Assembly (NCBI GenBank): GCA_036785375.1
Contig: JAWMAR010000069.1
Coordinates: 6,262,001 to 6,326,000, forward strand
From: Leucoraja ocellata
Lineage: Eukaryota
Length of the DNA stretch: 64,000 nt
Reading direction: 5' to 3'
The notes below the pieces were generated by a model. That model did not search any database. It worked only from the letters and a program-made list of their open reading frames with translations, and had not been told where the DNA came from. Shown here piece after piece: positions 140-59,868 of the stretch (positions are counted from its first letter, which is position 1; each line of letters opens with the position of its first letter). The position numbers and the translations under genes were made by a program.

Positions 140-320
140 ACGTTAGTTTATTGTCACATGTACTGAGGTACAGCGCAAAGCTTTTGTTGCGTGCTAACCA
201 GACAGTGAAAAGACAATACATGTTATTAGCAATCGAGGCATCCACAGTGTACAGATACATGATAGTAGGAATTACATGAATAACATTTAGTGCAAGATAA
301 AGCCGATAAAGTTTGATTAT
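140..320 (-). mobile_element. Rex1/Babar-type LINE 3' UTR fragment
   Basis: Reverse complement of the tail ...catgtgacaataaactaa; the same tail follows Rex1-like RT sequence at 47515-48045. Confidence 0.7.
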
Positions 321-528
321 AGGTACACAAAAATGCTGGAGAAACTCAGCGGGTGCAGCAGCATCTATGGAGCGAAGGAAATAGGCAATGTTTCGGGCCG
401 AAACCCTTCTTCAGACCTTCTTCAACCCATCAGTCTGAAGAAGGGTTTCAGCCCGAAACATTGCCTATTTCCTTCGCTCCATAGATGCTGCTGAACCCGC
501 TGAGGTTCTCCAGCACTTTTGTCAACCT
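321..528. mobile_element. Fold-back (inverted pair) of Penelope terminal repeat with two hammerhead motifs
   Basis: 321-416 is the near-perfect reverse complement of 433-528, with a 16-nt spacer; each arm contains ctgaagaagggtttc(g/a)gcccgaaacatt. Confidence 0.85.
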
Positions 529-644
529 TATTAAGGGACTTCTGCTCACCCCTGTCTTTATTTGTAATGTCTTACACATGTATGTAGTACTGTCCTTTAA
601 GGAATATTTTAGGATAAAAAGGAACAAGCATCTGAGGAGCCAAA

Positions 645-2795: not shown

Positions 2796-3035
2796 TGTTT
2801 AAGAAAGAACTGCAGTTGCTGACAAAATCAAAGGTAGACTCAAAACACTGGAGAAACTCAGCGGGCGAGGCACCATCTTTGGAGAGAAGGAATTGGCAAC
2901 GTTTCGGGTCGAGTCAGAAGAAGGGTCTCCCCCCGAAACATCGCCAGTTCCTTCTCTCCATAGATGCTGCCTGACCCATTGAGTTCCTCCAGCATTTTGT
3001 GTTTTACTCAAAATTCCAGCATCCGTAGTTTCTCA
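2796..3035. mobile_element. Penelope terminal-repeat fold-back pair
   Basis: ctggagaaactcagcggg...ggcaacgtttcggg is inverted relative to gaagaagggtctcccccgaaacatcgcc...gagttcctccagc. Confidence 0.8.
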
Positions 3036-4225: not shown

Positions 4226-4281
4226 GAACAGAAATAGGATCATCAACCCATAACTGCGCTACCCATTTCCACTACATTAAT

Positions 4282-4366
4282 CCAGTCTGAAGAAGGGTCC
4301 CAACCTGTCCATTCCCTCTACCGATGCTGCCTGACTCGTTGAGGTTCTAGAGCACTTTGTGTTTTG
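4282..4366 (+). mobile_element. 85-bp Penelope-derived mini-element with 10-bp TSD
   Basis: ctacattaat at 4272-4281 and 4367-4376 flanks ccagtctgaagaagggtccc...agcactttgtgttttg. Confidence 0.85.
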
Positions 4367-4519
4367 CTACATTAATTCTATTTTATTCATTCCACATTAT
4401 CATCAATTTCCTCACAGATTCTACCACTCACCTGCACAGAGGAAACATTTACGGTAGACCATTAACCTACTAAATGCTACATTTGGGGAGCATTTGCTAC
4501 ATGGAATGTAGCCTGAAGA

Positions 4520-5045: not shown

Positions 5046-6039
5046 CCTTTAATATCATAACATTGCTTCGCTCCCATCCAGCATAATAACTCTTTACTTG
5101 ATGGTATTATTAAACTTTTTGTATTCCTACATAATTCTAACACAAAATAAACCAACATAAAGTGCATAGAATATATAGGCAATCTGCCCAGGCATTACAG
5201 GATTATGGCCTTTGTAGATTATCAGTTCTATTTCCATTCCTTGGAATTCATACAGTAGAAATTCATCTTTGAGAAAAATACCTCAAGTTTTATTAGTGAC
5301 CACAACACAACAAACTCATTTAGAATACTTTCCATTCTGTGGTTGCTTGATATAATGAATTCTTTGAAATCCTTTTGGCTTTTATTGACGTCTTCTTTGT
5401 GTTGAATATATTGATCAAAACCTTTGACATTGGATTTTATCTTCCCGCAATCCTAATCTTGTCTATTTTAACTGTTCTGTTAAAGGTATCAGTTTCCAGC
5501 CTTTTTAAGTCGGTGATCAAAACTAATCCATGTAGTTAATCTTGGCCTACATATGACTTTATAAAGGAAAGGTTTTTTTAATCTTGTAGTAGCTTTTTCT
5601 ATCACCTACGCAATCACCTCTCACTGATTGAACTCTTATTTTCAAGGTAACGTATAACTGCATTGTTCACAATGTTTTCCTGCAAATTTGTTCCCTCGAT
5701 TTCTTCAGAATGTTTGTTTGATCTTCTCCCTTCATAATACACCTTCCACATAGCCCGACTGTGCGGTTTAAGATTCTGCTGCGTTCTGTGTAGTTATCAT
5801 GTTAAATGGGGTCAAGGAAAGGGCGTTCACATCGCGGCCCTGTTTCCACCAATCTTTCCACCACTATGCACAAGAAGCACAAGAAGCGCAAGACACCATT
5901 GTCTGCAGATGCCGAGAAGTGTGTTCAGCTCTGGCTGAACAATTTCTAATCTTGTGATGTGGACTCTATAAGAAAATTACATTAAATAAAAGTACACCCT
6001 CTTGGCAAGTGTGGCCTGTTGAACTTTGGGAGTTTGTAT

Positions 6040-6239: not shown

Positions 6240-6545
6240 GGGGCAGCTCAGTGGCTCAGCGGTAGAGATGCCACATTACAGCGCCAGAGACCCAGATTTG
6301 ATCCTAACTATGGGTGCAGTCTGTATGGAGTTTGTACATTCTCCTTGTGATCACGTAGGTTTTCTCTGGGTGCTCCGGTTTCCTCCCAGGCTCCAAAGAC
6401 GTACAGGTTTACAGGTTAATTGGCTTCCATAAAATTATAAATTGTTCCCGGTGTATAGGATAGTGCGAGTTTAAGGGGTGATCGCTGGTTGGTGCAGTCT
6501 CGTATCCTGAGGGACATGTTTCTGCCTTGTATCTCTAAAGTCTTA
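6240..6545 (+). mobile_element. HE1-type V-SINE (full length)
   Basis: Head gtggctcagcggtagag, V-domain, tail tgtatctctaaag. Confidence 0.9.
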
Positions 6546-7025
6546 GTTACAGTCAATGTTTTATCCAATTAGTACACAGTTTCTAGGGTAACATGTGTTC
6601 CAGTCTTTCATTAATTATTGTTACATTGAAAGAGGAAGGCATCACAATAAAGTAATGTATCACTGTGGCATAGAGCATTATGACTTCCATTTCCATTGAT
6701 GGCTGCTTGGTTTTCTAAAGAAACACTCCAAGGACATGGATGGAAAATCAAATAAACTACAAGCGCTAGAATTTTGAACTAAAAACAGAAAGTGCTGAAA
6801 ATACTCGGTAGGTCAGGCAACGTCTAGGGGAATCAAAACATCTGTTGACCCTTCATCAGAATCTCTGGCACACTATCGAGCAGCAAGCCCAGCTTCATAT
6901 GATGCCTGCCCTGCACACATTGTGAATGATGGTGAGTTCCTTCTCTGGCCTCCAATCTCCCGAGCGACCCTTTTCACTGCACCATCTGCTCCAAAACTCT
7001 TGCCTTGCCTTCAACACTCACATGT

Positions 7026-7167
7026 GTAGGAAGGAACTGCAGATGCTGGTTTAAACCAAAGATAGACACAAAATGCTGGAGTAGCTCAGTGGGACAGCAG
7101 CATCTCTGGACAGAGGGAATGGATGATGTTTCGGATCGAGACACTTCTTCAGACTCAATATGATTAC
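7026..7167 (-). mobile_element. Penelope-derived mini-element with 11-bp TSD
   Basis: cactcacatgt at 7015-7025 and 7168-7178 flanks the PLE repeat. Confidence 0.85.
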
Positions 7168-7369
7168 CACTCACATGTTAGTCCACCATGTTAACACAAA
7201 GATGACCTCAAAGCCTAATTTTCCTTAGAGATAGGATTTTGTCTCTTTCACCATCTAGATGAAGAAAATCTATTACGTCACTTAAAGGAGACCAGTGAAG
7301 ATCTAATGGGGTCCACACTGATTAAAATATAGTTTTTTATGATTACCCAGTTGGAAGGATCAGAAAATG

Positions 7370-7455
7370 TCCGAAGAAGGGTCTCGACCCGAAACGTTAC
7401 CCATTCCTTCTATCCAGAGATGCTGCCTGTCCCATTGAGTTACTCCAGCATTATT
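7370..7455 (+). mobile_element. Penelope-derived mini-element with 10-bp TSD, hammerhead motif with mutated core
   Basis: tcagaaaatg (7360-7369) / tcggaaaatg (7456-7465); ccgaagaagggtctcgacccgaaacgtt. Confidence 0.8.
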
Positions 7456-8159
7456 TCGGAAAATGACTTTTTTTTCTTGACCCTCTGATTATTACCAGGA
7501 AAACAGTGTGATGGTTAAAACTATTAGCACCATAAGATTAATAAGTAGCTTGGAAGACTTTCTGTTGATTTATTCTTTATTTATGTTTTCACTGTTTTGA
7601 TCGCAGCTGTCTACATATAATTGCTATCATTGATCATTGTTCCTTCCTTTCTGTTGTTTAGTTAGTCCACTATCCAGTCTGCACCATCTTGATTCATGTA
7701 GAATCTTTCACACTAGCTTCATTACTCTTACAACATAGCCAGCTTAACATAATCTAAAAATCAAGGGACGGAATTTTACCATCTTCAGCTGAGTTGGTCA
7801 CATGATTTGATAAAATTGTCGGCCATGATTTTTGTTTCATGAAGTTATGTAGTTGCTGTCATTACTCTCAGCAAATAGGTTTATACTGTATTTCTTTCCT
7901 AAAATGTTATCATGCTTTTATGTCCTAATTGCTAAGTTGTCGTTACTGCTTGATTTCCATGTACAAAAAACACCCTGAAGTATTTCTCGTATCTTCCCTA
8001 CACCCTAACTTTATTTTCGGAAACAATAACAATGTGAAATTATTAGTGAAATTAAATGTGAAAAGTCCATTATTCTGACTGAGGAAAGAGCTTGAAGATG
8101 ATAACTCCTATTCAAAGTCTAAGTGGGTTCCTGGGGAATGGTGTAGAGCAGTAAGGTCT

Positions 8160-12097: not shown

Positions 12098-12299
12098 TCT
12101 GTGTAGGAAGGAACTGTAGATGCTGGTTTACACTGAAGATGGATACAAAATGCTCGACTAACTCAGCAGGTCAGGCAGCATCTCTGGAAAAAAGAAATAG
12201 ATGATGTTTCTGGTCAAGTCAGGGTGTCAGTCTGAAGAAGGGTCTCGACCCAAAGGTCACGTATTCCTTTTCTCCAGAGATGCTGCCTGAGCTGTAGTC
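12098..12299. mobile_element. Penelope terminal-repeat fold-back with 11-bp TSD
   Basis: ttaaatgtcca (12087-12097) / ttaaatttcca (12300-12310); inverted arms around cagtctgaagaagggtctcgacc. Confidence 0.8.
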
Positions 12300-20942: not shown

Positions 20943-21024
20943 ATATATACTCACATAATATTACTTTTTTGTTATTTATTATGGTGTTTTGGTGTTTATA
21001 GAGTACCATGTTCACATCTCTGTG

Positions 21025-21155
21025 GAGAAAAGAACTGCAGATGCTAGCATATACCGAAGATAAGCACAAAGTGCTGGAGTAACTCAGTGAGTCAGGCAGC
21101 AACTCTGGAGAAAAAGGATGGGTGATGTTTCAGGTCGGGACCCTTCTTCAGACTG
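21025..21155 (-). mobile_element. Penelope-derived mini-element
   Basis: gaactgcagatgct...gtgatgtttcaggtcgggacccttcttcagactga. Confidence 0.85.
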
Positions 21156-21554
21156 AGTTCTCAGCTCAACTACAGCCCGAAGCCTCCATGCTGCAGGCTC
21201 CTATGCCTCGTCGTCAATGTTTACATATCTGTGTGCGTCTGCAAGTGAGAATTTCATTGCCCTGTTTCAGGACTAATTACCCCAAAACACTCTTGACTCG
21301 TACACGTGAGAAGTCAAGGATTTAGTGAGAGTAACAGGAAAGCATAGCTTCCTTTTGCATTTAATACTCACAGTTTTTGAGGGAGTATTTGGGGATGGCA
21401 TTGATAAACCACTATCCATTTGGAACACATGATGAACGGTGAATGATGAATGGTGGAAGGAGTGCACCAGCTCACTAATTGTTCTTGCACCTTCCCTGAC
21501 AGTGGATTCCTAAGGTGGTCTCATCAGCCATTCCAGAGAGAACAAAGTCATCAA

Positions 21555-22719: not shown

Positions 22720-23180
22720 TCAGGAGACACAAGGAACTGCAGATGCTGATTTACGAAAAAAAAAGAAGCGCAAAGTGTTGGAGTAACTCAGTGAGAGGCA
22801 GAATCTCTGGAGGACGTGGATAGGTAACATTTTGAGTTGGGACTTCTTCAATCCGATTGTAATAGGTGGGGTGGGGTGAGAAATCTGGAAAAAAGAGGTG
22901 GAGGCAAGATAAAGCCTGGGGGGGGGGTGGTATTCGCAGATGGGTGGACCAAGGCTGAAGATGAAGAGACAAAGGGTGTAAGATAAGGAGAGAAGAAGTG
23001 TGAAATGTGAAGCCAGAGGAGGGGATACAGGTCGGAGGGGTGGAGGAAGGGGGGGGGGAGAAAAATTGGGTGGGGAGAAAAAGTGGGATAAAATAGTGTA
23101 CACCCAGATTTGGCACAAGAAAGAAAGTGGGTTGGAAAAGAATGGGATTAGTTATCTAAAATTGGAAAATTCAATGTTTA
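22720..23180 (-). mobile_element. Penelope terminal repeat
   Basis: PLE repeat end plus G-rich tract ending attggaaaattcaatgtt (NIEF.N). Confidence 0.75.
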
Positions 23181-23581: not shown

Positions 23582-24298
23582 GAAGATAGAGACAAAAACC
23601 TGGAGTAACTCAGCGGGTCAGACAGGATCTCTGGAGAAAAGGTGACGTTTCAGGTCGAGACCCTTCTTCAGACTGAGAGTCTGCAGAAAAGGAAACGTGA
23701 GATATGGACGATGATGTAGGGGAATATAGAACAAATGAATGAAAGATGCAAAAAAGTAACAATAATAAAGGATATAGGCTATTGTTAGCTGTGGCTCAGG
23801 TGAAAATGTTTATGGACAATGAGACCCAACAAGATGACTTTGAAGCTGGTATGACGGGTAGGGGGAGGGATGGAGAGACGGGGGATGTAAGGGGTACTTG
23901 AAGTTAGTGAAATCAACATTCATACCACAGTGTTGTAAGTTGCCCAAACAAAATATGAGATGGTGTTCCTCCAATTTGCGTTTGGCCTCACTCTGACAAT
24001 GGAGGAGGTCGAGGACAGAAAGGTCAATGTGGGAATGGGAAGTAGAATTAAAGTGTTTCGCAACTTGGAGAACAGGTAGGTCCAGGAAGACTGAGAATAG
24101 GTGTTCAGCGAAACGATTGCCCAGTCTACGTTTGGTCTCGCCGATGTATAAGAGTCCACATCTTGAACCACAGATACAGTAGATGAGGTTGGAGGAGGTG
24201 CAAGTGAACCTCTGCCTTAGCCTGAAAGGACTGTTGGGGTCCCTGGACAGAGTCAGGGGATGAGGTATAGGGACAGGTGTTGCATCTCCTGCTTTAAG
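23582..24298 (-). mobile_element. Penelope-like retroelement 3' part with GIY-YIG endonuclease
   Basis: ORF 23810-24391: QRFTCTSSNLIYCICGSRCGLLYIGETKRRLGNRFAEH...VAKHFN...LEEHHLIFCLGNLQHCGMNVDF; followed by terminal repeat with hammerhead motif. Confidence 0.95.
23644..23671 (-). ncRNA. Minimal type I hammerhead ribozyme motif (Penelope-associated)
   Basis: Reverse complement reads CUGAAGA A GGGU CUCG ACCU GAAA C GUC. Confidence 0.7.
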
Positions 24299-26868: not shown

Positions 26869-27222
26869 ACGAGAAAGATTGGGTACATCACCTTACACCT
26901 GCAAATTGGAGATCCCCATGAGAAGATGTATTTCAGAGAGAGGTCTGAACTCTGCAAGTGAGGTGAAACTCAGCAGGAAAAACAAAAGCTTGTAGCGAGC
27001 TATTAAAGTAATTGGAGTAATTTAAGTAATTGGAACACGGATTAATTTCTCCATGTGTTACAATTAGTGCAGGTGAACGGCAAAGCAGAATGTGAGGGAC
27101 TTTTAAGCATCATCTGGATCTCCCTTCCTGATTACTGGTGCTCTTCATTGGTGATAATGATCAGAGTGTGGAGAGAGTCACTGCTTAGGCAGGCTTAAAC
27201 TTAAATACTTGCGGGAGGACAT

Positions 27223-27337
27223 AGATGTAGAAACATCACCTTTTTCTCCAGAGATGCTGCCTGACCCGCTGTGTTACTCCAGCACTCTGTTTCTATCTGC
27301 GTTATAAACCTGCATCTGCAGTTTTTTTGTTTCTACA
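27223..27337 (+). mobile_element. Penelope-derived mini-element with 7-bp TSD and short inverted end
   Basis: aggacat at 27216-27222 and 27338-27344; 5' tgtagaaac is the inverse of 3' gtttctaca. Confidence 0.75.
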
Positions 27338-28489
27338 AGGACATCAAAAGCATAGGAACACCGCACGGGGCACATTGCCGTCCAAATCACGCACCATGTT
27401 GACTTGGAAATATATCACCTTTCCTTCACTGTGCTGGAGCAAAATCCTGGAATTCCCTCGTTAACAGTGATATTGAGATGCCCAGTCTGGCAAAGAGTGG
27501 AGTGGTTAAAGAAGGCAGCACAATGTCACCTTCTTTGGGGCATTTAAGGATGAACAATTAAATGTGAAGCCCACATCCCTTGAAAAATAAACAATCTCCA
27601 TCAATTCCTGACTGCAGGAAGCATCTCTGGTCCTTTCCCACTCTCCTGACCATTGACACTGACAGATTTGCATGTTGCCCCACAACACCAATCCCCATTC
27701 ATTGTTAAAGTCCATAGGAGATCTATGTTAAAACTGCTTCAGCCTGCATTGTGCAATGGTATCCAGGCCTAATTCATCATTGGCTGCAAATAAGTTCTCA
27801 GAAGTTTCAAGTTTTGGAATCACAAAAGCAAGTTCAAATCGATTGAAGAACTTGCACAAGATTAACAGCTCTGATTTCCAATTAAATATGCGGCTATGAG
27901 CAATCAGGATTAATAATCAAACACGGTCACTGATTTACTAATTTGCTCTCCACTGGGAGGTCGACAACATGAACCACGTTTACTATACTAAAGACATTGG
28001 AAATTGCTCAATTCTAAATAAAAATGCAACTGGGGCGAAATTGTACCGTGCAATATTAGCATGGACATAATTACATTTTGAGCAACTTTTTTGATGTGCA
28101 AATTTGTTGGTGGAATTAACTCTTTGGGGGTGAATTTGGTCTTTGCAGTATCTGCTCTCTTTGTGCTACAAATGTCTTAGAGCACAAAACATCTCCAGTG
28201 TTATTCACACAAATTAGTGGGCTGAATGGTGTTGGACACTTTTCATAAGGACCAGGCAGATCAGTGATAAACAGATGTATAAGTTCATGAATAATGCTTT
28301 ATCTAGACAGTACATAGATAGGAAAGGTTTTGAGGGATATGAGCCAAACACAGGCAGCTACCACAAATGTAGATGGGGCATCTTAGTCAATATGGGCAAG
28401 TTGGGCTGAAGGGTCTTCCATGCCAACTCTATGACTCTAAGTCTTAATACTCAGTGCTTCAGGGTACAAATTCATCCACAGCCACTGTT

Positions 28490-31702: not shown

Positions 31703-32260
31703 TCAATGGGGGGAGAGGATGGAGTCGAGGTATGTGGAAATAAGTTCGGTAGGACACGAACAGGCAGAAACAGTGGGTCTGCCAGGACAGTCAGATTTGT
31801 GGATTTTGTGGAGAAGGTGAAATAGGGCCATGCGGGACTGGGGAACGATGAGGTTGGAGGCTTGGGAGGGCAGGGAGCTGGAGTTGATGAAGTCAGTGAT
31901 GGTGCTGGAGATAGTGGCCTGATGCTCGTCTGTGGGGTCATGGTCCAAGGATAAGTAGGAGGAGGTGTCTGAGAGTTGGCGCATGGCATCTGCCTTGTAG
32001 AGATCAGCGCGCCAGACTACCACGGCACCTCCCTTGTCGGCGGGTTTGATCACCCAGTCTGGGTTGTTGCAGAGTGAGTGGAGGGCTGTACGTTCAGGGG
32101 GGGGAGAGGTTAGAGTGAGACAGGGGAGTGGAGAAGTTGAGGCGGTTGATGTCCCGCTGGATGTTTAAAATAAAAAGTCTAAAGCCGGTAGATGGCCATG
32201 AGGGGTGGCCCAAGAGGAGGGGGTCCGTTGGAGATGGGAAAAGGGGTCATCACTGATGTG
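31703..32260 (-). mobile_element. Penelope-like reverse transcriptase N-terminal fragment
   Basis: IKPADKGGAVVVW..DLY..A.RQLSD.SSY..L..DPT...KIHK..CPGRP.VSAC..PTELIS.YLD.IL.P, the characteristic PLE DKG motif. Confidence 0.93.
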
Positions 32261-35900: not shown

Positions 35901-35993
35901 GTCTGAAGAAGGATCTCGACCCGAAACGTCACCTATTCCTTTTCTCTAGAGATGCTGTCTGACCCGCTGAGTTACTCCAGCTATTTGTGTCTA
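35901..35993 (+). mobile_element. Penelope-derived mini-element
   Basis: gtctgaagaaggatctcgacccgaaacgtcacc...gagttactccagc. Confidence 0.85.
35903..35930 (+). ncRNA. Minimal type I hammerhead ribozyme motif
   Basis: CUGAAGA A GGAU CUCG ACCC GAAA C GUC: core intact, one stem II mismatch. Confidence 0.7.
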
Positions 35994-36384
35994 ACTGTGA
36001 TCACATAGCTAAGTAACCAGTCTTGTTTTGACCCATAAGGTGAGGGTATTTACAGGCAGAGATTATCCTAGTCTTCTGGACAGAGAAGACAGAGACCCAA
36101 TGAAGGTGAACTAAACACTCCCTCCAGGATATGCATGGATGCTGAAGGCAAGGGACTGGAGAATAGGCTGAGCGACCTGCCTGTGAAGGTGACAGATCAC
36201 TGGCTCGTGATTGTTCATAGAGAGGTTCACAGGAATATTTATTATAATAAATGGTCACATCTAAATAAAGTGAATTAAAAAGCATTGAGGTATTATATCA
36301 ATAATGTTCAATTTCTTGGAAAATGTGGTAATTTAACACCACCGATTCTGAATGTGCTGGATTAGTGGTGTTTTGTTGTATATC

Positions 36385-45854: not shown

Positions 45855-46115
45855 AACTAGACTTTAACGATACAGTGTAGAAACAGGCCATTTGGCCCAT
45901 CGAGTCCATGCCGACCAGCAATTAACCTGTACACTAGAACTATCCAACACATTAGGGACAATTTACACTTTACAGAAGCCAATTAACCTACAAACCTGTA
46001 GGTCTTTGGAATGAAGGAGAAAGTTAGATCATACAAACTCCGTACAGACGGCACCCGTAGTCAGGATTGAACCCGCATCTCTTGCATTGTAAGGCAGCAA
46101 CTCTACTGCTGCGCC
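45855..46115 (-). mobile_element. HE1-type V-SINE
   Basis: Tail to ggcagcaactctactgctgcgcc. Confidence 0.85.
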
Positions 46116-48410: not shown

Positions 48411-48493
48411 TTATCTTTTTCCAGACAGGTGATGATGATAGACAAAAGGAATTACTGTGTCAAAAATTGAGGAAAACTGACAGCAGGAGAGAT

Positions 48494-48713
48494 AGACCCA
48501 AAATGCTGGAGTAACTCAGCGGGACAGGCAGCGTCTCTGGAGAGAAGGAATGGGTGACGTTTCAGGTCGAGGTCCTACTGCAGACTGAAGAAGGATCTCG
48601 ACCCATAACATCACCAATCCCTTCTATCCAGAGATGCTGCCTGTCCTGCTGAGTTACTCCAGCACTTAGTCTCTATCTTCGGTGTAAACCAGCATCTGCA
48701 GTTCCTTCCTACA
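48494..48713. mobile_element. Penelope terminal-repeat fold-back with 10-bp TSD
   Basis: caggagagat (48484-48493) / caggagggat (48714-48723); arms meet at cagactgaagaagg. Confidence 0.85.
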
Positions 48714-49099
48714 CAGGAGGGATGTAGCCTGGTATGAAGAATATTTCTGATTATGCATTTTCTAGCAGGTATGCTAATTAACTTTAATTATGCCATTGAG
48801 GACAATGACTTTTCCAAGTGAACTTGTCAAATGAATGTGTTAGTTTGTTTGAGTTTTAGAACCGTCAGTTGGAGTGCATGAGCCTGTGATTGTACAGTGA
48901 GGTCAAGCAATCGTATTACAAAGGGAAACAGCTCTCTGCACTATGAGATCAAAGAGAAAGCCTTGCACAAGGTGTCAATTGCTGTTAATGTGAACGTCTT
49001 TGGTTCTGTTATAATAGAATACTGGCAATCCAGGATTTTAATTATAAAATATTAAACATTGAAACTGAACAAAGTGGATGGTGAAAAGCAGCCATTTTA

Positions 49100-52793: not shown

Positions 52794-52859
52794 ATTCGAA
52801 TAATTACTAAACAGCTCACAAGCTACTGGAGGAAACAAAGCAGAAACTTTTTTATCATT

Positions 52860-53069
52860 AATGTTTAAGAAGGAACTGCAGATGCTGGAAAATCGAAGGT
52901 AGACAGAAATGCTCGAGAAACTCAGCGGGTGAGGCAGCATCTATGGAGTGAAGGAAATAGGCAACGTTTCGGGCCTGAAGAAGGGTTTTGGCCTGAAATG
53001 TTGCCTATTTCCTTAGCTCCATAGATGCTGCCTCACCTGTTAACTTTCTCTAGCATTTTTGTCTACCTT
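52860..53069. mobile_element. Penelope terminal-repeat fold-back with 14-bp TSD
   Basis: acttttttatcatt (52846-52859) / acttttttattatt (53070-53083). Confidence 0.85.
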
Positions 53070-53490
53070 ACTTTTTTATTATTCATTGGCTTTAAAAATG
53101 TCAGGATATTCTGAAACACTTTACAAACAATTTAAGTGTAGTCATCATTAGAAAGTATAATTCATCCAGCAGATTGTTTATACACGGCATGTCAAGCAGG
53201 TTAGATAAATAGACAGCATGCTTATTTTTTAAACTACCCTTAGGCTTAAGTAAGGAGTATTACTTTAGATTAAAAGTTATCCAGGTGCTCCTTTTACTGA
53301 TGAACATAGAGAGTTCTGTACATGATGTTAAGTGTTGAGGCATTGGTCTTTCTGAATAGCAGCTCTGCCATTCCACCATCTCTCTGTTTCTTGTAGCACC
53401 ATATGCACCCACGAAGATCTAATATCCAATACTAATAACCGGTGCAACACTCATTATTCTATTAGCACATGTTATCAGAGATTAAGGAGA

Positions 53491-53590
53491 GGTCTGAAGA
53501 AGGGTCCCGTCCCGAAATGTCGCCTATCCATTTTCTCTAGAGTTGCTGCCTGACTCGCTGAGTTAATCCAGCACTTTGTGTCTATCCTTG
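53491..53590 (+). mobile_element. Penelope-derived mini-element
   Basis: ggtctgaagaagggtcccgtcccgaaatgtcgcc. Confidence 0.8.
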
Positions 53591-54059
53591 AGATCTGATT
53601 GATACTTTTGTGCTTCAGGCTGTTTTATTGGTGTTGTCAGTTTACAGAGAACATCGTCAGTGGGAAACCACAATCGTGTAATTCTTAACACAAACCTTCC
53701 AATGGCAAATCTTGGTGGGGATCGAGTCTTATTTTCTTACTCTAATGAGACCATTTGTCTTGCATGGGACAAACATCTGATAACGCAACACATATAAAGG
53801 GGAAACATTACTTTAACGTACTGGCAAACATTATCTGAAGTAAATTCATCAAAGAGAAAAATATTGGCATTGCAATCAATACTGACATTAGAACACACTT
53901 ACTGCAAAGAGAGATATTGAAAACATTTTGGAAATGTGATGAAATGCCAATGTGTGACACAATGCCATACACATTTTGACGAAATATTTTATGTGGCTCA
54001 CATTGGCAAAAGACGATTTTTCCAATTTTTGACCCAAGTTCTGTCCCGAACTGTTGGCT

Positions 54060-58130: not shown

Positions 58131-58491
58131 ATGAATATTCACCCCTGTACTGTCAACAATAGTCAATCAAGAAATATTTTATTTTAAATACTCTTTTTCT
58201 GCAATCGAAAAGTAGCTGATTTACTTTCATACCACTTCCATATTTAATTGCATGCAGCATTTGTATGTATTGAAATTATTATTTGGTCCATCACACATAT
58301 TTGTATCTATAACCACTCCAGTGGAACAGATATGAGTTATGTTTTATCACTGAAGGTAGGAAGATCAATATGGCAGACAAAACTTTACCAATTTGAAAGT
58401 CAGTCAAAGGCATTGATCAATTATCAAAAAGGCACAAATTGCTGGAGTAACTCAGCAAGTAAGGTAACATATCTGGAGAACATGGATAGGT

Positions 58492-58519
58492 GACGTTTCA
58501 GGTCGAGACCCTTCTTCAG
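58492..58519 (-). ncRNA. Minimal type I hammerhead ribozyme motif in a PLE mini-element (58430-58520)
   Basis: Reverse complement CUGAAGA A GGGU CUCG ACCU GAAA C GUC. Confidence 0.7.
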
Positions 58520-58621: not shown

Positions 58622-58840
58622 GTCTGCAGATGCTGGTTAATAAAACAAGACACAAAGTGCTGGAGTAACTCAGTGGGTCAGGCAGCATCCCTGGAGAACA
58701 TGGATACTGTAGGTGACATTGAGCAGAAGAAAGGTCCTGAAATGTCACCTATCCATGTTCTTCAGAGATGCCGCCTAGCCCGCTGAGTTACTCCAACGCT
58801 TTGCATTTTGTTTTGAAAACCAGAGTGTGCAGTTCCTTGT
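58622..58840. mobile_element. Penelope terminal-repeat fold-back
   Basis: Inverted arms ctgcagatgctgg...gaacatggata / tatccatgttc...gttactcc. Confidence 0.8.
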
Positions 58841-59868
58841 TTATAGTAAAGGAGCTGATTGCCAATGGCATTCTCCTTTAGTTAAATTAGACATGCTGTC
58901 TGTGAGGTGTCAAAACATTAGTGGAACCTCACAAATTGAACAAACCCTGTTGTTTGAACATGGAACAGTACAGCACAGGAAAAGGCCCTTCGGCCCACAA
59001 TGTTGGTGCTTAATATAATGCCAAGATAAATGCCAAGATAAACGAACTTCATCTGCTTACATTGGATTCATAACCCTCCATTCCCCGTTCATACAAGGAA
59101 GATTAAAGAATAGAGGAAGACATGCATCTGGACGCTGAGTTCCTGGTGTTTCATGCTTGTAAATGGTGCTATCTCCTCCCAATCCTATTAGGATCTGGAC
59201 TCCATTTGGAGATAAGCTGTGTATTTTCTCGTCTAATGTGAAGTATACAGGACGTCAAAGTTAATGTAAAATTTACAAAGCTATTTACTGCACAGAGTGT
59301 TTTTTGATCACTGAATACACAGGGTGCACAAATGAGATACACTCGGAGCATGTAGCAAGTGGACGAGGATGGATGTGATATGCAATGTACAAATCAACTG
59401 CTGATGTGTAGTCAGTGATGCCTGGACGTTTTATTTCCTCGTTATCTGAGCAGTGAGTCACCCAGAGACTGTGCCACACGCAAAACACAATCCCAAATGG
59501 TTATCTTCCAGCTAGATACTTATCTACGATGGTTCTGTTCTAACTCCTCTAGTTTGCTGACAAGACGGGTCTCTGAAAGGGGGAAACTTAATTCACTTTT
59601 TGCTACGTTATCGCCTGCCATCTATCTTTCCCCTGCAGCCAGCCACAGTCTCTGTAACGGGGCCTGATTTGCTGGTGCCTAGCAGTAATTGTTTGGCTGC
59701 TGCTGATGCTGAATGAGCAAACAGGTTTTGAGTTGCCAACTGCAAGAGGTCAGAAATAAATTAGCAAGTCGACAAATACATAACTGCACTTCCAATTTCC
59801 ATGTTAAGAGAATTTTGTTTGCCACTGGTTTATCCATGCTGGTTAAACAGCCAAGTGCTCCACGGATA

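Follow-up and report, generated by a model that had tools for sequence, protein, structure and literature searches.

How the terminal repeats, inversions and tails of Penelope-like elements (PLEs) are formed is a standing question, and one element has been reconstituted in vitro (PMC11167929). Endonuclease-positive (EN+) PLEs of the Neptune type encode a reverse transcriptase (RT) followed by a C-terminal GIY-YIG endonuclease with two internal cysteines and a CX4CxxC linker, and their insertions include partial tandems, an inverted 5′-truncated copy and a 30–40 bp tail that is often at one end only (PMC8557442). In the Anolis Poseidon element PAc the tail lies between two internal RT start sites, a little more than 100 nt past the hammerhead; cutting and extension affect both strands and require no hammerhead cleavage, and no reads end at the cut site (PMC11167929). 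Solo minimal PLE hammerheads of metazoans—with CUGANGA, a bulged base, stem II, GAAA and palindromic positions 15.2–16.2—occur as thousands of single motifs and opposite-strand pairs, and have been read as truncated PLEs (PMC4209133). Non-LTR retrozymes are non-coding kin of PLE terminal repeats with a type I hammerhead and dispersed monomers (bioRxiv 10.64898/2026.07.22.740005; PMC7229834), and are characterized by tandem full-hammerhead units and circular RNA (bioRxiv 10.64898/2026.07.22.740005). The Penelope elements of Adineta (PMC3846280) and D. virilis (PMC2377424) have inverted terminal repeats, 8–10 bp target-site duplications (TSDs), junction palindromes, and an Initiator-like motif or internal promoter.

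The repeat analyzed here is abundant in a 64-kb stretch of DNA (the window, from an assembly of 3.44 Gb) and resembles each of these systems in the features just listed, leaving aside the two that define retrozymes. Unlike the Neptune PLEs as presented in PMC8557442, most of its insertions hold nothing but the end module and have a sharp 5′ edge; unlike PAc, a member of the Penelope/Poseidon clade whose open reading frame (ORF) starts inside stem II (PMC11167929), its ORF starts at about +165, where +1, as throughout, is the C of CUGA in the hammerhead motif. Ends and TSDs are mapped here, unlike those of the metazoan motifs in PMC4209133, and the hammerhead here is assigned from its sequence. 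Unlike retrozyme units, the copies for the most part stand singly or in head-to-head pairs, and most of the tandem units seen lack CUGA. Two further differences are that the Adineta inversions have been read as self-priming on an antisense template (PMC3846280), and that the D. virilis transcript starts not at the hammerhead but ahead of an intron (PMC2377424).

Repeats of this kind are already known and most copies are dead; it is the 5′ edge and the asymmetry of paired arms that bear on PLE insertion, and hundreds of stumps yield predictions at the level of single bases, namely that the template ends at −2, that cleavage plays no part, and that inverted insertions hold one cDNA per start site. 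No published description of such a PLE 5′ edge was found in the literature, subscription papers and Repbase entries being outside the scope. For annotation, these abundant repeats belong under PLE ends, not under SINEs or retrozymes.

The repeat module and its parent element

The module comprises CUGANGA at +1..+7, stem II at +9..+20, GAAA at +21..+24 and NUH ending at +28, followed by a further 65–100 nt; each unit adds about 95 or 131 nt to a minimal hammerhead. The repeat profile matches the window 41 times, six head-to-head pairs and a few long copies among them (Table 1), and has zero matches in a reversed 814-kb control. With the SINE-like repeat at 6240–6545, the putative HE1 of the original prediction, as query, BLAST gives 26 matches in the window, itself included, and the comparable density of the two repeats that had been claimed in the original prediction is borne out. 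CUGANGA, GAAA and NUH are all kept in only 9 of 34 strong window matches and, among the four copies on which that prediction was built (4272, 7015, 7360 and 27216), only at 7015.

Table 1. Repeat copies, pairs and coding remnants in the window (positions of the whole stretch).
Position	Strand	Feature	Details
4272..4281	+	Left TSD	10 bp
4282..4366	+	Short PLE end copy	Start about −4; broken hammerhead lacking GAAA box and 3′ half of stem II; end near first 3′ site
4367..4376	+	Right TSD	10 bp
7015..7178	−	Short copy with tail	Core intact; start −2, preceded by 12 extra nt; TSDs of 11 bp at 7015 and 7168
7360..7465	+	Short copy	Start −1/0 immediately after own TSD (9/10)
27216..27344	+	Short copy with tail	Start +21 (without CUGA core); 7-bp TSD
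318..532	.	Head-to-head pair of end copies	
2796..3033	.	Head-to-head pair	
12100..12298	.	Head-to-head pair	
48490..48715	.	Head-to-head pair	Arm ends +94 and +131; junction is the palindrome in front of CUGA
52859..53080	.	Head-to-head pair	Arm ends +134 and +104
58624..58841	.	Head-to-head pair	
21021..21156	−	Short copy with tail	Core intact; start about −5; candidate 17-bp TSD (2 mismatches) 59 nt farther upstream
35901..36001	+	Short copy	Start −1; core intact
53492..53591	+	Short copy	Start −1; core intact
58423..58519	−	Short copy	Start +1; core intact
23583..24223	−	Long 5′-truncated copy	GIY-YIG-coding remnant (24223-23915), 3′ untranslated part, then same hammerhead module
31709..32041	−	Remnant of PLE coding sequence	Region before RT core

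The minimal type I hammerhead pattern (CUGANGA, stem II, GAAA, NUH) is present in the family pattern, and copies 4272, 7360 and 27216 fail it. The motif was not called in an Rfam search, and four repeat sequences folded no more stably than shuffles (z −0.9 to +1.1). Helix I has two pairs only (0/+29 and −1/+30), with A-C at −2/+31 in 310 copies. The identification as a hammerhead follows the sequence pattern and PMC4209133, and self-cleavage is a predicted property.

The repeat is tied to a parent by the long copy at 23583..24223, in which a GIY-YIG remnant is joined to the same module; in the larger sample described below, 44 of 461 solo copies likewise reach endonuclease-coding sequence. At locus L116, a complete unit within a young subfamily whose members are 96–99% alike, two module copies 3.9 kb apart flank an open frame of 1202 codons. 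The Pfam matches of this frame are weak and under the Pfam cut-off (RVT_1, E 1.3e-5; GIY-YIG, E 0.0095); the RT motifs, GIY-YIG motifs and CX4CxxC linker are plain in its translation, and among 550 relatives most of those listed have RT domains. A candidate ATG lies at about +165, about 30 nt beyond the tail, so that the module forms both the 5′ leader of the downstream ORF and the 3′ end of the upstream one. A single ORF with RT and C-terminal GIY-YIG, partial tandem and inverted terminal repeats and an optional 30–40 bp tail place the unit among EN+ PLEs. A CX2-5CxxC motif between RT and endonuclease is described as present in Neptune and Nematis and absent in Penelope/Poseidon (PMC8557442), and the linker speaks against the label 'Poseidon'. 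The parent is an autonomous PLE, probably of the Neptune type, its clade being read from the linker motif, which Nematis shares. A resident Penelope RT/GIY-YIG had been proposed as the source, and the parent and the coding remnants agree with this.

A second intact PLE family (loci L031–L050, for example L044 1–3252) has a 759-aa frame with the same linker motif and lies in tandem arrays with a period of 1.5–6.5 kb, followed by long CCCTAA runs; it appears to be an endonuclease-positive PLE linked to telomeric repeats. A hammerhead pattern scan of five of its loci found none, and these intact GIY-YIG elements were rejected as the parent for want of the hammerhead repeat.

Within the window, the insertion at 7360–7465 and both its flanks are duplicated at 99% on contig C136, as a haplotype or segmental duplicate. 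Several short copies follow the SINE-like repeat directly, at its AT-rich tail, which may point to a target preference. At 5796–5859, beside coding-like sequence of another repeat, the Rfam model of the CPEB3 ribozyme matches weakly (24 bits, where the gathering threshold is 35; E 0.047); this could be an HDV-like ribozyme or chance.

The 5′ edge and target-site duplications

Copies were collected from 1,614,000 bases, made up of the window and 1.55 Mb from 11 contigs; the regions are non-random (near earlier matches, with 3 to 306 matches each), and counts are not genome-wide copy numbers. Among 1309 matches, 941 are strong and have flanks (863 once shared-flank copies are removed), and these comprise 482 solo, 344 head-to-head and 81 tandem copies and 34 with a short partner piece. 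The 5′ ends were placed by aligning solo copies to references anchored in endonuclease-coding sequence, giving 461 de-duplicated copies; all-against-all extension was not used, because chance matches and shared host repeats shift the ends. Calls made in this way err in both directions: the window copy at 46115 was called long through a neighboring repeat, and those at 22731 and 3528 were called short and are long by eye.

The ends pile up just before the hammerhead, 37 of the 461 copies ending at −2 and 28 at −1, and 153 of 346 at-risk solo copies end within the 10-nt stretch −6..+3. Between +40 and +11, and again between −17 and −126, the background amounts to 0.04–0.07 of copies per 10 nt. 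The two bins next to the peak stand above it, at 0.16 and 0.11, and the peak itself is about seven times background (p 5e-91 against 6%). It is present in all four subfamily groups (19/65, 48/109, 16/32 and 70/140). Not all copies are short, 35% of the solo ones having at least 30 nt extra upstream. By contrast with the peak, only 9 of 442 copies end near the cleavage site (+27..+31), and no second peak is seen there; the GUC site is about 30 nt downstream of the pile-up, and the ends are therefore not defined by cleavage. That hammerhead self-cleavage or smooth truncation sets the 5′ end is extremely improbable and, as the cause of the peak, already refuted: the fixed edge leads us to reject both smooth truncation and ribozyme-cut templates, even though a background of 4–7% per 10 nt on both sides implies that a good part of the copies are ordinary truncations.

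Base conservation and TSD position, both independent of the end placement, agree with this edge. The A at −2 is kept in 85 of 131 short and 110 of 122 long copies, and the C at −3 in 52 of 131 and 113 of 122 (the figure for short copies supersedes a sharper one, 21/76, from a narrower class of copies). Long copies conserve TCAG at −4..−1, and the sequence farther upstream is variable. The four TSD pairs from which the original prediction had concluded that the units are TSD-flanked are all in place (4272/4367, 10/10; 7015/7168, 11/11; 7360/7456, 9/10; 27216/27338, 7/7), and the conclusion extends to the class: a TSD ends within −3..+5 nt of the aligned 5′ end in 12 of 169 short copies, where controls with swapped flanks give 0.1. 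When the 32 TSD-bearing short copies are taken together, the TSD lies within 8 nt of the edge in 14 and 9–330 nt upstream of it in 18 (3.2 by chance), the extra 5′ sequence between being partly PLE-derived and partly unique. That the units begin at the hammerhead is upheld by the pile-up at −2/−1; of the founding copies, one (4272) has a broken hammerhead and another (27216) starts beyond the CUGA. Many copies thus share almost the same 5′ base just before the ribozyme motif, and this likely marks the start of the element RNA.

Short copies, paired copies and the origin of the edge

Short and long copies are common to every core subfamily, so that an independent SINE-like family is unsupported. 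No internal column separates the two after correction for 138 tests, the edge lies at the same place in every subfamily, and the hammerhead core is no better kept in short copies (intact in 52/132) than in long ones (73/163). That the short units are instead a SINE-like or retrozyme family with its own master copies, mobilized in trans, would fit their fixed ends and TSDs; some rearranged junctions, moreover, recur with different flanks, which indicates that short derivatives can spread. A tree of 262 cores has 74 changes of the short/long label against 85.3 ± 4.1 in shuffled trees (p 0.007), and the nearest neighbor has the same label in 58% of cases against 51%, a slight clustering in a tree that is mostly interleaved. 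Tandem units each with a complete hammerhead, by which retrozymes are recognized, are not the rule: 81 of 941 copies have a tandem neighbor, and most of the tandem units seen lack CUGA. The absence of pol III boxes noted earlier is consistent with the search of the repeat core with one B-box pattern, which found none. We consider an independent family improbable; the units are dead end-pieces of a Penelope-like element, and the SINE-like or retrozyme-like status first proposed for them is not supported. Ordinary truncated insertions had been expected to combine smooth 5′ truncation with short copies interleaved among long ones, and the data divide: truncation is not smooth, but the short copies are largely interleaved.

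The 3′ ends cluster at +85..+104 and at +120..+134, and the 35 nt between the clusters match the tail bounded by the two RT starts of the anole element (PMC11167929). After de-duplication there are 118 head-to-head pairs, in 87 of which both ends can be classified. One arm of each 3′ length is present in 71 of these, and two of a kind in 10 and 6, where half would be expected (p 9e-10); TSDs are found in 19 of the 87 and in none of the controls. That the tail is often on one arm only was already known (PMC8557442). The asymmetry points to two cDNAs copied from a single RNA, one primed on each strand. Recurrent junctions of the pairs lie at palindromes in and before the hammerhead. On contig C25, two head-to-head pairs separated by about 92 kb have an unusual junction insert in common, as would follow from descent from a single short master copy or from an old duplication.

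RNA reads from a species holding the family, at 97% likeness, rise in depth from about 10-fold to about 650-fold at the edge in run X24, and loose read ends, mostly of unrelated sequence, stand before −2 and −1 in all three RNA runs. These reads are mostly stumps inside host transcripts; they repeat the edge and reveal no start site. No place where many RNA molecules begin was seen in the raw runs, whose reads are mostly embedded copies, nor a pile-up of read ends at the hammerhead cut site, for which these three libraries are ill suited where cleaved or circular RNA is concerned. A copied cap would leave an extra G, and extra Gs were counted for that reason: one precedes GT in 14 of 27 non-templated cases (29% expected, p 0.009) and AGT, the main edge, in 10 of 27 (p 0.14), which is weak.

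The explanation towards which we lean, taken as a whole, is run-off at the RNA start. An RNA uncut by the hammerhead would likely begin at the A two bases before CUGA; we take TCAG at −4..−1 to fit the Initiator consensus, with the A at −2 as first base, and the motif at −4..+1 may thus be an Initiator. The mRNA would hold two copies of the RT start region, one within the 5′ leader and the other beyond the ORF. RT, if it behaves as in the anole element, would start at an internal site at about +95 or +131 and run off the 5′ end of the RNA, use of the leader copy giving a stump of 97 or 133 nt and use of the 3′ copy ordinary truncated copies. The endonuclease, again by analogy with the anole element, would nick both strands, and priming of both, one from each site, could produce head-to-head pairs joined at hammerhead-region palindromes. 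An Initiator-like motif lies in the terminal repeat of Adineta Penelope (PMC3846280), and D. virilis Penelope has its start site in the terminal repeat (PMC2377424); an intron begins 46 nt farther on and has its 3′ end at helix I (PMC2377424, PMC4209133). Against run-off at a start site stand this D. virilis start, which is not at helix I, the slight clustering of short copies on the tree, the raised bins beside the peak, the 18 TSDs lying 9–330 nt upstream, the RNA reads that reveal no start, the weak extra-G signal at the main edge and the ORF-start loci with PLE sequence farther up.

PLE sequence continues past −2 at 15 of 24 independent ORF-start loci, so that many templates reach beyond the edge. 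A template that continues upstream, with RT stalling or the endonuclease resolving the product just after the hammerhead is copied, would accommodate these loci and need no special RNA; the edge is spread over about −5..+5, and the tail has been ascribed to endonuclease resolution (PMC8557442). On a simple stall, however, partners of long arms should end at the edge no less often than solo copies, and they do so in 2 of 13 pairs where 7.3 are expected if stops are independent (p 0.003). This test was hand-filtered: from 47 rows, 23 were dropped for a reference with a tandem hammerhead copy, and of the 24 left, 18 general-sample rows gave the 13 pairs and one ambiguous case, and six from selected long loci were not counted; palindrome-driven joining could also bias it toward short arms. 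Full-length copies point the same way, 3 of the 18 ORF-start loci that reach the edge stopping there (at 0, +2 and +5; not clearly more than background, p 0.09), compared with 44% of solo copies (p 0.015), and helix I, with its two pairs, has already been passed by RT at the edge. A stall or resolution is to our minds rather unlikely; the strong RT stop at the ribozyme that had been raised at the outset is in this sense possible and disfavored by the partner arms. Splicing is a slighter prospect still. The pyrimidine-rich run that ends in CAG at −3..−1 in long copies would be an acceptor, and short copies would derive from spliced RNAs with an upstream exon ending in AG, as is suggested by the retention of AG with loss of C, by the extra 5′ sequence in 18 of 32 TSD-bearing short copies and by the D. 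virilis intron that ends at helix I (PMC4209133). Yet TSDs within 8 nt of the edge in 14 of the 32 leave no room for an exon; the upstream sequence common to 191 short copies consists, by eye, of other host repeats or low-complexity DNA and not a PLE exon, and a skip joint into position 0 is absent among the RNA-read joints listed, in one listing the best-supported ones.

A 66-bp cassette in older stumps

A rearranged junction that the parent lacks is matched exactly 839 times in the genome, with none for the control and none in the window; it marks a young derived cassette. At the 40 loci examined (L246–L285) it lies mostly in arrays of 66-bp units (+21..+87, without CUGA) plus an inverted compound. 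Fifty units at 20 longer cassette loci average 99% identity, and the arrays are joined to head and tail parts of older stumps that differ from one another, also in subfamily. On C5, C23, C25, C48 and C1, the listed places are in distal parts of the contigs. As a free, TSD-flanked element the 839-copy junction family failed, an outer TSD being found in 0 of 20 arrays and a TSD in 1 of 8 simple compound copies. From its sequence arrangement, the cassette may enter stumps already present by way of homology, through gene conversion or through homology-primed insertion.

A joint reading, which we offer tentatively as possible rather than probable, would have an mRNA start at the hammerhead edge and an RT start region present twice, yielding strong-stop-like leader copies in mass with both strands primed; ORF-less derivatives would then use the stumps as landing pads, the cassette of 66-bp units, for one, passing from stump to stump by homology.

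At L151 near 9400 and at other C70 loci, the compound junction occurs without arrays and with at least five different flanks, a clear TSD being seen in 1 of 8. The back-jump from +38 to +5 is also found in the RNA reads.
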